A stretch of 44,258 nt of DNA, taken from positions 1 to 44,258 of the forward strand of contig JAHIOW010000048.1 in the NCBI GenBank assembly GCA_018895075.1, given 5' to 3'. Position numbers: made by a program. This DNA comes from Candidatus Omnitrophota bacterium. Its GTDB lineage: Bacteria > Omnitrophota > Gorgyraeia > Gygaellales > Profunditerraquicolaceae. Numbering within the stretch: the stretch's first letter is position 1; each line of letters starts with the position of its first letter. Shown here in pieces: positions 21,001 to 27,000 of the stretch.

Positions 21001-24000
21001 TTCTATCTCATTTTGCACTATTTTTTTAGGTAGCCTGAATTCCGGGATACCATAGACGAGTACCCCGCCGGCTAAATGTAGAGACTCAAAGAGTAGCACC
21101 TGATAACCCATCTTAGCCAGGTCCGCAGCGCAGGTCAAACCTGCAGGGCCAGAACCCACAACCGCCACTTTTTTTAGTTGTCGGTTGTCGGTTGTCGGTT
21201 TTCGGTTTCTATCTGAGAGCTGATTTAATTCATAATCCGCAGCATACCTTTCTAATGCTCCGATATTTATAGGCATCTTTTTCTTATTTAATACGCAAAC
21301 CAACTCGCACTGGTCTTCCTGCGGGCAAACCCGGCCGCAAACCGCAGGCAGGTTATTTTTCTCTTTTACCTTCTCTAATGCCTCCTTGCGCTTACCTTCT
21401 TTAATTAATTTTATAAAACCGGGGATATCTATTTTAACCGGGCAACCCTTTACGCAGGGCGCCTCCTTGCATTGCAGGCAGCGTGCGGCTTCTTTCTCTG
21501 CCTCTCCCTGGGAAAAACCCAAGGCTACTTCCGAGAAATTTTTAGCGCGTTCTTTTGCGGACTGCTGGGAGACTTTATTACGCATTGATCAAAACCTTAA
21601 TGCCGGAATCAATAACTGGGCAACTTTAAAATAGATGATTAACCCTACCACATCCACAACACTGGTAGTAATCGGCCCGGCTAAGGCGGCAGGGTCAAGC
21701 CCAATCCTTTTGGAGAAAAGAGGTAAAAATATGCCTGTGGATATAGCCAGGATGGCGATCAGGACCATCGTCAAAGCCACAACTGTAGCCACAAGGAAGT
21801 CTTTCTGCAAAAGAAAGGCCCTGCCAAAAGCCACCGAACCTATAATCAACCCCATCAATATGGCGGCGCTAAATTCCAGTTTTACCACCCTAGAGATATT
21901 CTTGAAATTGACGTCGCCGGTAGCCAGGCCCCTGATAATGGTAATCGATGTCTGGGCACCGGCATTACCGCCGGTATCCAGCAGCATCGGTATAAAGAAA
22001 ACCAGGGCCACCACCGAAGTTAAGGTATGCTCAAAACTCTTTAAGACCGTGCCGGTTAAAAAATCAAACACCAACAAAAGTATAAGCCATCCTGCGCGCC
22101 TTCTCACTAATTCAAATGTTGTCGCCCGGGCATAGCTGATTATCTCACCGCCCCGGGCGTCCATTTTACCGATTTCGTATATTTCCTTGGTTGTTTCTTT
22201 TTCCATAATGTCTACGATATCATCAACTGTGATTATCCCCAGGAGTATATTCTCTTTATCCACCACCGGCACATCCAGCAGGTCATACTTCTTAAACCGG
22301 CTGACTACTTTTTTTATATCGCTTTTTACATTGATCTTGATTAACTCAACGCTTTCCATGATATCCTTAATCAGGATATCAGGTGGCGCCTTTAATAAAT
22401 CCTGCAAGGGGACGTTGCCTACTAATTTATGATTTTCATCAGTCACAAAGACGGAATAGATGTTCTCGCGGGATTCGGCGCGCAGATTTTCCTGCACAGA
22501 CAATATGGCCTGCCTGGCAGTCATCTCTTTCTTTAACTCCACTAATTCCGTAGTCATCAAACTGCCGGCAGTGCCTTCCCTGTAAACCAATAATTCCCTT
22601 AAATCCTGCGCCTCCTCTTTGTTTATTAAACTAAAAAGCTTCTTAAATACCTTTTCCGGCAATTCTTTAAAGAGGTCTGCCCTCTCATCCGGAGCCATCT
22701 CGTTAATAACCTGGGCGACCTCAGTGTTATCTAAATTATTCAAGATGTGGGTCTGCTCAGGGAACCTTAAATTTTCAAATACCTCCACTGCCTTCTTAGG
22801 GCCCAGTAACTTAAAAACAAGTATCTTATTCACCGGCTCCAGGTATCTCCAGCCTTCAGCCAGGTCAATAGAATGGGTATTTTTCAGGCATATCTTTAGC
22901 CCGTTAAAATCTTTTTTCAGGATTAATTCTTTTATCTCCGGCAGGAATAAGGCAAAGACGTCTATCTTCTTACGCGCTGAATTTTTCATCTATTTTTTTC
23001 TCCTGGTCCTTAAATAACTCTAATCTTTTCTCTAACTCGCCGAAATCGGCTTGATGGCCGTCAAACTCCGGGCCATCCACGCAGGCGAATACAGTCTTAC
23101 CTGCGACGCTGCATCTGCATGAACCGCACATACCTGTGGCATCAACCATAATCGGATTCAGGCTTACTGTGGTTTTAACGTCGTATCTACGGGTAAATTC
23201 AGAGACTGCTCTCATCATCGGCAGGGGCCCGATGGCGTACACCAAATCCGGATATCTGGTATTGGTAGACTGCTCTATGGTCTTAAAATATTCCTCTAAC
23301 ACATCTGTGACAAAACCCTTATGCCCGGCTGAACCATCGTCAGTGGCGATGAACAATTCATCGCAGACTCCCCTCATCTCATTTTCCAAAATGAGTAAAT
23401 CTTTACTGCGGCTGCCGATTATACCGATGAGGCGATTACCCGCCTCTTTAAATGCCCTACAGACAGGATAGACTTCAGCCACGCCTACGCCGCCGCCGAT
23501 ACATATCACCGTGCCTATATTCCTAGCATCAGTTGCATGGCCCAAGGGGCCCAGGATATGGCCTATGCTATCACCGATATTAAGCGCCCCTAATTTCCTG
23601 GTAGTAAACCCCACTTTTTGAAATATCAAACTAATAACCCCTTTATCTTTATCCCAATTTGCTAATGTCAAAGGTATGCGCTCGCCTTGCTCCTCAATGA
23701 TAATAACTACAAATTGCCCTGCTCTTGCCTTTTTGGCAATCTGCGGCGTCTCTACCTCTAACCTGATTATATCTTTAGCCAGATCTTCTTTATGAATTAT
23801 TCGGGACATCTTTAGACTCAATGATTTTCATCCTGACATCAGGAAATCTTTTTTCTACCAGGGTAGAACCTTTTTCTTTTCCTAAAACAAATATGCTTGT
23901 TGCCAGGGCGTCCGCAGTCAGGCAATCCGGCGCAATTACCGTCACAGAAACCACACCGGAATCCAGGGGGTATCCTGTCTTGGGATTAAATATATGTGCG

Positions 24001-27000
24001 TAGCGTCTGTTGCCCTGTATAAAAAACTGTTCGTAATCGCCGGAGGTTGCTACCGCTTTATTTTTTAATTCTAAACGTTGGAGAAAAGCAGCGTGGCGCG
24101 GGTCTTTTACTGCCACCTTCCAGGATTTACCCTTTATGTCGCCTAAGGCATATATATCACCACCGGCATTGATCAGGCAATCCTTTATACCTTTTTCTTT
24201 TAACTTCTTTACGGCGCAATCTATGGCGTAACCTTTAGCCACTGCCCCCAGGTCTATCTTCATCCCCTGAACGCTAAATTTTACCACATTTTCGGCATTA
24301 TTAAAAATAATTTTATCAAAACCTACAAGATTCAGCGCCTCTTTTATCTCTTCATCTCTGGGTAAATAATATTTTTTATCCGTAAACCCCCACAGATCCA
24401 TCAGCGGCCCCACGGTGATATCAAATGCTCCATCGCTAAGCTGCCAGAATTCTTCTGCCTTTTGCAGAATATACAAAGTATCCGCACTTACCTTTAGCTC
24501 GCCGCGTTTATTTAATCTGACAACCTCGCTATCCTCTCTATATTTACTCAAGAGGCCTTCAATTCTTTTTATTTCAGTAAAGGCGACCTTGGCTGCCTCT
24601 TTATCCGGTGAACTAACCTCCACAAATGTACCCATCACTATGCGGCTGTCTTTATAGAGTTGCTGATTCTGACAACCGACTAAAAGCGTAAAACTCAAAG
24701 CGCAAAGCGCAAAACCAAAACTTAAAACATAAAACTTTAAACTTTGAGTTTTAACTCTACGCTTTTCGCTTTGCACTCTACGCTGTATCATTTTTTTATC
24801 GTCTTTAATAATTCCTCGACCGCAAGCGTATTAATCACTTCGTTTTTACTCAGCCAGCCGCGCCGCGCCACAGATACGCCTAATTTCATCATCTCCAGCT
24901 GCTCGGTGGTATGCGCGTCTGTGCCTATAACTAACTTTGCGCCTATCTCTTTTGCCCGACGGCAGTTCAGGTCATTTAAATCTAACCTCTGGGGAAAGGC
25001 ATTTATCTCTAAAAAAGTATTTGTATCTCTTGCTGCTTTCAAAACTTCATCCGTATCTATATCGTAAGCATCGCGGCTACCCCATAGCCTGCCTGTAGGG
25101 TGTGCAATAATATGGGCATATTTATTCCGGCATACCCTGATAAGCCTCTTGGTCAACTGCGATTTAGATTGTTTAAAACCGCTGTGAATCGCTGCCACTA
25201 CCACATCAAATTCTCTTAATGTCTCGTCTTTATAATCAAGCCTCCCGTCAGAGTCGATATCCGCTTCTGTGCCGTATAAAATCCTAAAACCTTTTATTTT
25301 TTTATTCAACTGCCCTATCTGGCGTCTCTTTTTCTTTAAATCCGCCACACTTAATCCGCCTGCTACCTTTAAACTTTGAGAATGGTCAGTGATGGCAATA
25401 TAGGAATAACCCCTGAGTTTTGCTGCCCGGGCCATTTCTTCAATGGTATTGCCGCCGTCTGACCAACGCGAATGCACATGCAGGTCTCCTTTTAGGTCTT
25501 GGACCTTGATCAGTTCAGGTAACTGAAATTTTTGTGCCAGCTCTATTTCTCCGGCGTCCTCCCTTAATTCCGGCTCAATATAAGACATCCTTAACGTCTT
25601 GAATATATCCTCTTCGGTCTGCCCGGTGATAAATCTATTCTTGCGGAAAACTCCGTATTCGTTTATCTTCAGCCCCTTTCTTATGGCTATCTGCCTGATT
25701 TTAATATTAAAATTTTTAGAGCCCGTGAAATATAAGAGTGCTGCGCCAAAAGATTTTCTTTCTACCACACGGCAGTCTACCTGGATATCATCCTTTGTGC
25801 GTACCGAAGACTTGGTTTCTCCTCTGGCTAAAACCTCTCCTACATCAGGATGTTTGGTGAAGATATTCATAATTTTGTGCGGCCGGTCTGAAATTGCCAG
25901 GATATCAATATCGCGCACAGTCTCTTTCTGACGCCTCAGGCTTCCGGCGTAAGATATTTTTTTAACCCCGGCTAAAGCGCCAAGTGCTTTGATAAATTCA
26001 TCCGCCACCTGGATTGCCTGCGCCAGAGTCATCCTCTCTCTCCCTCTTTTTAAGAGTTCGATGCCTTTGGAAATATTCTCAACGGTCTTTTTTTTGATGC
26101 CGAAAATTCCCTTCAGTTTATTCTTTTTTATAGCCCCCTCTAAACCCGCAATATTCTTTATCTTCAGTTTCTCATATAATAGTTTCGCAGTTTTGGGCCC
26201 CACCGAAGGAATATTAAGCAAATCTAAGAGTCCGGCTGGTATGGTCTTTTTTAAATCTTCATACACTTTTATTCTGCCGGTTTCCACAAACTCTTTTATC
26301 CTCTCCGCCAGATCCTTACCTATTCCGGGAATCTGTGTAAGTTTATCGCCCCTTATAAAATTTTCTATATCTTCGCTCAATCCTGCAATATTCTCTGCTG
26401 CCCTCTCGTAGGCGCGGATTCGAAAAGGGTTGCCGCCCTTAATCTCTAAGATCTTGACGATTTCGCGAAAAATCTCGCTGATTTTTAAGTTTTTCACAAA
26501 TCCCCTTTGATTTCTCTCAGCGCTTCATTTTCTGGATCTAATTCTTCTGCCTTCAGAATATAAAGATTAAACTTATCTACGTCGCCTTTCTTTTTATAGG
26601 CCTGGGCTAACCGGGCATTAACAGTAGCAAAATCCGGGGTGAGTTTCACCGCATATTCTAATTCTTGAATTGCCTTATCAATATTACCGCCAACTATCCG
26701 GGGCGCGAGCAGATAAAACGTACCTAGCCCTAAACGCACCTCAGATAAATCCGGAGCCAGAGTTTTTGCTTTGACAAAAAAACCTCCTACTCTCGTGCCA
26801 TAGGCAACCTTGTATAAAAATCCGCCTAAAGAGGCCTTTTTGGCATTTATGCTGCCCATCAGCATATAAACCAGGGCCTTATTTTCTCTGTCTAAATCCG
26901 GCTGCCCTAATACCTCCTGCAAAATACCAGAGGCCTCCTCAAATTTATCTTCATGATACCTCATATAAGATAGACTGATTAAACTTGATGCGTGAGCCGG

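Follow-up and report, generated by a model that had tools for sequence, protein, structure and literature searches.

Inverted 7-base repeat hairpin at the start of an Omnitrophota apbE gene probably replaced the n- and h-regions of an older export signal

The window, a stretch of 44,258 nucleotides from contig JAHIOW010000048.1 of a Candidatus Omnitrophota bacterium (source genome, G000), contains on its minus strand the gene apbE (23790..24791), which encodes a predicted lipoprotein of 333 amino acids in the FAD:protein FMN transferase family (Pfam ApbE, E 1e-92) and is the sole ApbE match of this genome. The upstream gene, on the same strand, belongs to the PolX/PHP family (polX, 24788..26497). 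Its stop codon overlaps the apbE start in an ATGA (24788..24791, minus strand), an overlap found in array-free orthologs too, and a hairpin of inverted 7-base tandem repeats starts a few bases past this stop. The A-rich arm, first on the coding strand (24736..24784, minus strand), encodes most of the Lys/Arg-rich n-region, and the T-rich arm (24685..24733, minus strand) encodes the hydrophobic h-region; the two arms are 71% complementary. Codons 1-19 (24735-24791) form the n-region and codons 20-36 (24684-24734) the h-region. Beyond the repeat lies the lipobox L-V-G-C (24672..24683, minus strand), whose Cys is retained in 82/85 distinct ApbE alleles (97 loci, 12 of them dropped as edge or duplicate). 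When close allele pairs of relatives differ in the signal, two neighboring segments diverge with it, namely the last ~45 nt of polX and, in part, the first ~15 mature codons of apbE; carried over to this locus, they would lie at 24788..24835 and 24625..24671 (both minus strand).

Lipoboxes follow the consensus [LVI][ASTVI][GAS]C. Scored by hydropathy and lipobox rules, the predicted ApbE signal possesses the Sec/SPII lipoprotein architecture of basic n-region, h-region and lipobox, and the hairpin is predicted, from sequence, to serve as an export signal. An earlier note on this DNA had assigned the A-rich arm to the n-region and the T-rich arm to the h-region, as the arm and codon positions bear out, and had described one hairpin of -42 kcal/mol; the computed value is -42.1 kcal/mol for 111 nt, and the translation reads as quoted. 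For 131 nt the value is -45.9 kcal/mol (z -5.52), and none of 200 shuffles was equally stable.

Period 7 dominates the tandem repeats of the source genome. TRF assigned 70 of its 267 rows to this period, compared with 9, 7, 3 and 5 to periods 8, 9, 10 and 11, and an independent scan found 69 arrays versus 0-8 for each of periods 4-6 and 8-13, in agreement with the 72 versus 0-9 given previously. With new gene calls the midpoint of 51/70 arrays falls within a gene (56/72 in the earlier count), and 120 kb of genome G021 contain 3 arrays. Arrays occur, as had been reported, in the predicted signals of SurA, LptD and LptE, and also in those of M48 and further exported proteins; LptD, M48 and GDSL are among the signals with a T-rich array but no partner arm. 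The enrichment of arrays in genes with an N-terminal hydrophobic stretch is reproduced as a count (11/143 versus 5/795), but the hydropathy test is circular, as a T-rich array itself produces such a stretch. The enrichment persists when labels are taken from array-free homologs in other genomes (6/83 versus 5/426, p 0.004), a labeling that leaves 515/1082 genes unlabeled and in which 2 of the 5 array-bearing "non-exported" genes are mislabeled exported proteins. T-rich sense arrays make up 21/29 of those in signals and 10/79 of those at other coding sites. Stop/start overlap amounts to 9/11 versus 28/115 in the source genome and to 14/16 versus 98/241 in a test via orthologs, where ApbE and AmmeMemoSam supply 9 of the 16 and the start calls favor overlaps.

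The apbE hairpin belongs to a family of ~100-bp hairpins that are mostly non-coding, lie directly after stop codons at gene junctions, and occur in Patescibacteria too. A search of the source genome with nine seeds, apbE not among them, gave 14 matches at E<1e-5, 8 in signals and 6 elsewhere (best E in a reversed-genome control, 0.056). Collinear ~100-bp copies are found at unrelated loci and in other families and phyla; a non-coding copy in genome G032, for example, matches the apbE hairpin in 84/104 columns. At least 24/233 other genomes of the order contain hairpin-only matches, and 11 of these matches, when inspected, proved to be 4 in signals and 7 non-coding. A 24-nt arm motif occurs at 14 loci in six genomes (3 Omnitrophota, 3 Patescibacteria), every one intergenic, while a strict core pattern had matches, among 41 genomes, in the source genome only. 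Dispersed copies of a single length, inverted arms, and presence or absence at orthologous sites, as in MITE- and RPE-type elements (RPE, Rickettsia palindromic element), all characterize the family. When the elements are translated, 61/84 frames read basic and then hydrophobic, and 18/84 are open. As 3 does not divide 7, A-rich units followed by T-rich ones would read this way in the majority of frames, and an open copy would look like a Sec or lipoprotein signal. The hairpin would be translated at those sites where an exported gene can tolerate it.

Heptamer arms also bracket genes of the four-helix-bundle family (PF05635/TIGR02436), with both filled and empty junctions. Both flanks are periodic at 18/30 PF05635 loci, compared with 3/161 control windows, and the source genome contains one full heptamer-armed cassette (G000:C71:42082-42396). 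The apbE hairpin resembles the arms of such a cassette at the sequence level, but it is not a full one, as its loop contains no gene. Arms of a cassette in G032 match the apbE arms at 36/43 and 37/50 positions, under a shuffle control that destroys periodicity. In G010 one gene bears a cassette plus an arm within its signal; the signal of this gene in G031 and G118 is a hairpin with no gene inside. Of 35 ApbE signal arrays, 18 fitted sampled cassette arms better than reversed or complemented ones and 16 fitted them worse (p 0.2). As the units show no significant tie to the arms and the shuffle control loses the periodicity, the likeness of the arrays may be partly convergent. Some signals have a single arm, or a start codon inside the loop, and these are not accounted for by a simple one-piece insertion. 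No endonuclease or reverse transcriptase gene lies within the hairpin or is linked to it in the source genome; no arrays lie near its one reverse transcriptase, which we take to be group II intron-like, or its two Y1 transposases. One GIY-YIG domain was identified in this genome, but no PF13366 and no NucS above cut-off, and no target duplication was noticed in one alignment of hairpin copies, although no systematic search for one was made. By association only, the four-helix-bundle protein is the best candidate for the mover of the arms.

ApbE alleles reveal a rapid turnover of signals. Heptamer-built signals were found in 29/52 metagenome ApbE sequences and in 0/256 mature windows, and 28 different consensus units are spread over 35 tips. 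Unrelated signals occur in 7/9 allele pairs with at least 84% mature identity; even alleles 99% identical carry unrelated signals, within a swapped block that reaches ~45 nt into the upstream gene. In the pair L246/L251, for example, there are no differences across 650 upstream columns, then 13 over the final 45 nt of polX, where 6 codons differ synonymously and 3 non-synonymously, and downstream at most one difference per 50 nt over 1.65 kb; the swapped block runs from the tail of polX through the signal and a few codons into the mature part. Such co-conversion of flanks, a trait of homing elements, recurs in 5/5 close pairs with swapped signals, where the ~45-nt polX tail is divergent and upstream identity is at least 0.94. 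These pairs come from metagenome contigs, and any single pair may be a chimeric assembly. No donors of the swapped flanks were found, the best identity being 0.73-0.91. Between the source genome and allele L227, the signals are 90% alike (29/32 synonymous sites) and the mature parts 73% (78/139), and the closest allele to L227 bears a different signal. Array-bearing alleles show only a trend toward longer signals (p 0.10 and 0.09). Wholesale signal differences between near-identical alleles likely arise via short-tract recombination.

The earlier note had proposed a route for the birth and turnover of signals. Turnover stands, and the arrangement recurs in many exported proteins; birth is not supported, and an origin of signals in proteins previously without one is improbable. 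It would agree with the basic-then-hydrophobic reading of the element itself, and 4/15 array-bearing exported genes of the source genome have no homolog in the sample. The other 11/15 do, and in all 11 the homologs possess a signal or hydrophobic N-terminus, although the single complete LptD ortholog carries a weak array itself. ApbE orthologs retain the lipobox with or without arrays, and the lipobox or cleavage site falls outside the repeat. Junction copies ahead of non-exported genes were translated as signals in 0/6 cases, and among 1293 "cytoplasmic" genes the three with an array and a signal of their own (LptD twice, M48) were all mislabeled. All 24 AmmeMemoSam B-A orthologs examined have a signal-like N-terminus, with period-7 arrays in 8/24 N-termini but 0/144 mature windows, which fits an ancestral signal; as the AmmeMemoSam family is usually cytoplasmic, the signal of the B-A fusion may represent an ancient gain. 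The apbE hairpin likely replaced an older signal rather than creating one. Growth in place, in which a quasi-palindrome of the n- and h-regions is amplified by slippage and template switching in a mismatch-repair-deficient lineage without a mobile element, is unlikely, yet the best placed of the rival readings. MutS was found in only 7/41 genomes and not in the source genome, many arrays stand alone, sit in a loop or have their two arms split by the start codon, and the diversity of units and their lack of a significant tie to cassette arms would also fit. The collinear copies at unrelated loci and in other phyla do not, and close alleles change to unrelated units with altered flanks and not in unit number. 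MutS loss, acting through slippage, was rejected as the cause of the arrays, since array density does not track it: G030, with MutS, has 10.5 arrays per 100 kb (over 200 kb, part of it selected for cassettes), and the MutS-less G023, G031 and G011 have 0, 1.0 and 1.4, all on partial genomes in which some contigs were picked for ApbE or cassette matches.

Three further readings were considered. One holds that selection acts on the hairpin as an mRNA structure tuning the translation or coupling of the exported gene, with the peptide secondary; it is about as improbable as birth de novo. The coding strand of apbE folds at -42.1 kcal/mol with 8 G-U pairs, versus -30.3 and 1 G-U pair for the other strand; arms flank the ribosome-binding site and start in some genes; and signals that have been kept resemble each other more than the mature parts do. 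This strand bias is not general, as the coding strand was the more stable in 12 of 26 hairpins (p 0.86), covariation is weak (term +0.78, a double change in 6/33 pairs), and many alleles have one arm or none; selection at the RNA level was rejected accordingly. An Rfam search of the hairpin gave no match at the gathering score, only sub-threshold scores of miRNA-like hairpins. Phase variation of the Neisseria opa type, where slippage of one unit turns the gene off, is still less credible. Allele L289 is one 8-nt unit shorter than L238/L252 and out of frame, but it is the only such allele, 84/85 being in frame; the units of the apbE array are degenerate, in each of three runs one contig crosses the hairpin with no gap (contigs drop rare variants), and some targets (LptD, LptE and SurA) belong to the essential or near-essential proteins of diderms. 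Least credible of all is that the arms are untranslated and the true starts lie downstream. The start calls were indeed computed for this analysis, but the T-rich arm reaches the lipobox, no alternative ATG or GTG leaves an h-region outside the repeat, and the frame is open from the overlapping ATG in those same 84/85 alleles.

The reading favored here is that codons 1-36 of apbE represent one copy, devoid of a gene, of a dispersed hairpin of inverted 7-base arrays; this copy probably overwrote the n- and h-regions of a pre-existing signal and is predicted to direct export. The proposed landing site of arms or whole hairpins is a stop codon; if the start of the following gene overlaps it, the landed hairpin would fall within that gene's 5' end. 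Selection would retain copies only ahead of an existing lipobox or cleavage site, and remove or silence them before cytoplasmic genes. Lineages would then trade junction alleles through recombination of short tracts from divergent donors, a process that the absence of MutS may ease. A bolder extension is tentative and rather doubtful: cassettes and gene-less hairpins might form a homing-like system aimed at stop/start junctions, which rewrites the junction along with ~45 nt of flank and persists within operons because its arms read as ready-made signal peptides in most frames. The export signals of essential envelope proteins across the phylum would then be serially replaced by selfish DNA, and on rare occasions one may be acquired by a protein of the cytoplasm.

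The usual view of signal peptides is one of drift through point changes, or of gain and loss as entire units. Among the closer ApbE alleles, over half have repeat-written signals with differing units, and 99%-identical alleles differ in the entire signal. This gives a concrete, testable route for the turnover of targeting signals and a natural library of repeat-encoded ones, and the four-helix-bundle cassettes offer a handle on the unexplained bacterial excess of 7-base repeats. It also cautions against relying on N-termini from these phyla for phylogeny or annotation.

In the literature searched, which covered few subscription journals, no paper dealt with signal peptides formed by heptamer hairpins, with four-helix-bundle genes between heptamer arms, or with co-conversion of flanks during signal swaps. 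In the portions available, PMC4060949 has no passage on heptamers, and PMC3315296 treats N-terminal repeats but not signal peptides. Several known systems share single features with the apbE hairpin. In Enterobacterales, signal peptides are gained or lost by insertion or deletion of whole segments among orthologs, with no IS elements at N-termini (PMC5952966); the whole-segment change is similar, whereas here repeat DNA replaces the signal and the cleavage site is kept. The opa genes of Neisseria carry CTCTT coding repeats in the leader peptide (PMC3960869). In both cases a portion of the signal peptide comes from a pyrimidine-rich tandem repeat, but the opa repeat is a perfect pentamer acting as an on/off switch, while ApbE arrays are degenerate, often paired, and in frame in nearly all alleles.

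Over-represented heptamers are described, in the passages available, for Xanthomonas (GGGAATC inverted pairs) and Nostoc (PMC4692102), where the P6b element of the tRNA-Leu intron forms a heptanucleotide hairpin (PMC3488679). They share with the apbE arrays period 7, inverted pairs, hairpins and location near stop codons; those passages place them mostly outside coding sequence, give one or two units for each genome, and describe no signal-peptide role (PMC4692102, PMC3488679). Rickettsia palindromic elements are ~100-bp palindromes lying between genes and in frame within conserved genes (PMC2229807, PMC2996958). Size and dual location are alike, but RPEs are described as in-frame insertions, whereas the apbE hairpin consists of 7-base tandem units replacing a targeting signal. 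One known dispersed hairpin-forming repeat, fused in frame, also supplies part of a predicted signal whose homologs have unrelated ones, in one or a few hypothetical ORFs as far as its description extends; the hairpins of the apbE type, by contrast, occupy conserved envelope genes, form whole n- and h-regions in many independent events, and have heptamer arms and no visible terminal TA duplication. Finally, genes of the four-helix-bundle or 23S rRNA intervening-sequence protein (PF05635, TIGR02436; Avd-like) lie here between inverted heptamer arms, once of the apbE type, and the apbE copy differs from these cassettes in having no gene inside.

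The gene apbE (23790-24791, reverse strand), coding for a predicted lipoprotein, is the sole ApbE match in the genome under study, G000 (1.05 Mb). Its start is overlapped by the stop codon of polX, and its codons 1-36 form one hairpin (-45.9 kcal/mol, z -5.5), in which no gaps are found across the three contigs that span it. As the earlier note had described, the n-region is read from the A-rich arm (24736-24784) and the h-region from the T-rich arm (24685-24733); the lipobox LVGC lies directly after the repeat and outside it. The window also contains a non-coding inverted array of 7-8-base units between two divergent genes (27394-27531; 46-nt arms, 74% complementary) and an AT-rich palindrome (1783-1856). 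The palindrome lies upstream of two genes, for a nucleotidyltransferase and an HTH protein, that resemble an AbiE-type module. Positions 5611-12286 presumably hold aldehyde-dehydrogenase-like, cyclase/reductase fusion and acyltransferase genes amid several response regulators and sensor kinases.

The burst of 7-bp tandem arrays, mostly inside genes, was recovered by our own scan, with 69 period-7 arrays against 0-8 for each of periods 4-6 and 8-13; TRF gives period 7 in 70 of 267 rows, and 51 of 70 period-7 arrays lie within called genes. Predicted signals with arrays occur in 15 exported genes of G000, including those of SurA, LptD and LptE, already named beside ApbE, and of an amidase, an M48 peptidase and a UshA-like protein. 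The earlier test for enrichment in signals was circular, but the enrichment itself holds when array-free homologs in other genomes supply independent labels: in G000, 6 of 83 exported genes against 5 of 426 others (p 0.004; 515 genes without label), LptD and M48 being two of these five. The corresponding figures for all sampled DNA are 15/244 and 6/1293, where 7 of the 9 hits beyond G000 come from ApbE or AmmeMemoSam genes, their contigs having been picked for these genes. Arrays are also found elsewhere in proteins, for example in frame within a GltD-like gene (21177-21207; 4.4 copies, A-rich on the coding strand), in a likely linker. Some genes possess 2-3 separate arrays of differing units (C71:11613-12431, C63:24496-25161, C18:13500-14100), which suggests local clustering.

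The claim that such hairpins create signals de novo is not sustained. Among 85 ApbE alleles (97 loci less 5 too close to an edge and 7 duplicates), an in-frame start is present in 84 and the lipobox Cys in 82, and 47 bear an array of period 7 or 8 in the 135 nt that precede the mature part. Periodic ApbE signals number 29/52 against 0/256 mature windows in the metagenome set, which is weighted towards close relatives and counts 5 duplicates, and 7/27 against 1/162 in the genome set. Homologs were sampled for 11 of the 15 array-bearing exported genes, and all 11 have signals or a hydrophobic N-terminus. Even the AmmeMemoSam B-A fusion, where a gained signal seemed most likely, shows a signal-like N-terminus in each of the 24 orthologs compared; in 8 it is periodic. 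The hairpins in these predicted signals are probably replacements of older signals, not births. In six hairpin copies before non-exported genes no start able to translate the T-rich arm was found. Arrays are T-rich on the coding strand at 21 of 29 signal sites against 10 of 79 other coding sites: the hydrophobic-reading orientation persists chiefly at places that call for an h-region. A possible intermediate is the gene at C25:27815, where a heptamer hairpin of another unit (C25:27600-27815, -39.5 kcal/mol) immediately follows the ATG and is itself followed by an apparently intact, apparently older h-region; alleles L251 and L260 have a similar hairpin as their apbE signal.

The apbE hairpin belongs to a dispersed family. 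A profile built from 9 seed copies, including the palindrome at 1783-1856 but not apbE, retrieved 14 copies from G000 at E<1e-5, with apbE among them, 8 in signals and 6 outside. Twelve copies of the family align collinearly. A non-coding copy in the relative G032 matches the apbE hairpin in 84 of 104 columns, and the corresponding junction in the window is empty. With the hairpin alone as query and two candidates scored for each genome, at least 24 of the 233 genomes of the order have matches of about 71-93% at other loci. Eleven of these were retrieved: 7 lie in non-coding DNA, and the remaining 4 are predicted signals of other exported proteins. A motif of 24 nt from the arm turns up at 14 loci in 6 genomes (3 Patescibacteria), all intergenic by ORF reading, one locus repeating a known copy. 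Many foreign contigs match the arms alone in all four sequencing runs, as expected of a widespread repeat; a strict core pattern was matched in G000 only, out of 41 genomes. Some heptamer hairpins enclose a GC-rich palindrome of about 20 bp, which can also be read in frame as part of a signal (C63:47700-47760, L214, L216, L300).

Signals are probably exchanged as blocks. When 74 mature ApbE sequences are placed on a tree, 35 array-bearing tips carry 28 consensus units, perhaps some ten families, and sister tips often differ, deep support being low. Nine ApbE pairs share at least 84% mature identity; the signals are unrelated in seven of them, three of which make up one trio, and are kept at 96-100% in the other two. 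Conversely, G000 and L227 have signals 90% identical and mature parts 73% identical, and the nearest allele to L227 has another signal. The five swapped pairs that are 94-100% identical upstream drop to 64-78% over the final 45 nt of polX. L246 and L251 show no differences over 650 upstream columns and 13 in this polX tail (6 synonymous and 3 non-synonymous codons); around the mature start there are 9 in 75 nt, and over the following 1.65 kb never more than 1 per 50 nt. Such synonymous-rich flanks argue against random mutagenesis and make recombination, with a divergent donor, the probable source of the swapped signals, although single pairs may be chimeric assemblies; a search for the donor of the flanks identified none. 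Junctions that bear repeats may undergo such exchange in general, given that the last ~50 nt of apbE in L229/L231 diverge along with a different repeat element downstream. In L015 a GC-rich palindrome of another family stands in open frame before the apbE signal, and L269, an allele identical to it at 99%, carries a heptamer signal. L252 carries an in-frame 78-nt insertion about 630 nt past the anchor in mature apbE, absent from L238.

Hairpin copies start at stop codons or just past them, and a copy landing right after a stop would fall behind the overlapping ATG of the next gene. Overlap with the upstream stop is found in 9 of 11 array-bearing signal genes of G000 against 28 of 115, and by orthologs in 14 of 16 (9 of them two families) against 98 of 241, with start calls that favour overlaps. 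Composition is similar in every frame because 7 is prime to 3, and among 84 frames of 14 hairpin copies 61 read basic then hydrophobic and 18 are open. Some other signals have one arm only or a start codon within the loop, so that insertion in one piece does not account for everything. Out-of-frame alleles are rare for ApbE: one of 85, by one 8-nt unit. The apbE signals of L289, L238 and L252 consist of a perfect 8-base repeat, in frame with four units and out of frame with the three of L289, either a slip allele or an assembly collapse. MutS is indeed scarce (found in 7 of 41 genomes), but its loss does not explain the arrays, since their density in the genome parts sampled does not track it. 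Selection on mRNA structure would fit apbE, whose hairpin folds better on the coding strand, but was rejected in general: the coding strand is more stable in only 12 of 26 hairpins, and covariation is weak.

The hairpin also resembles the arms of a gene cassette. The single four-helix-bundle gene of G000 sits between inverted heptamer arrays. In relatives this arrangement is seen at 18 of 30 loci with such a gene, compared with 3 of 161 control windows. These cassettes vary in presence at orthologous junctions (such as those we take to be pgk-tpiA and priA-fmt), and the same arm units occur at different junctions around genes whose proteins are 70-77% identical. One G032 cassette has arms of apbE type (36/43 and 37/50). 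At L056 and L077 the downstream arm lies within the next gene's signal, and in two relatives, G031 and G118, the signal of the L077 gene is a hairpin that holds no gene. Against a tight link speak the G000-only core pattern and the units of 35 signals, which are no closer to sampled cassette arms than to reversed or complemented arms. A homing-like mobile system behind the signal hairpins is a less likely possibility. The G000 cassette is followed by a primase gene (C71:42479-45430) with a Hint (intein) domain.

Borg tandem repeats may be a further parallel, and many random sequences can reportedly act as signals (Kaiser and colleagues, 1987). No paper on heptamer-hairpin signal peptides of this build was found in the literature, searched in main texts. 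Precedents are the MITE RU-2 within a predicted signal, the RPE (PMC2229807, PMC2996958) and PARCEL palindromes, opa leader-peptide repeats (PMC3960869), inverted heptamer pairs and hairpins (PMC4692102, PMC3488679) and the gain and loss of signals without IS elements (PMC5952966). The observation is real; beside these systems, domestication of repeats is known in kind, and the probable replacement of signals by heptamer hairpins would be a new form of it.
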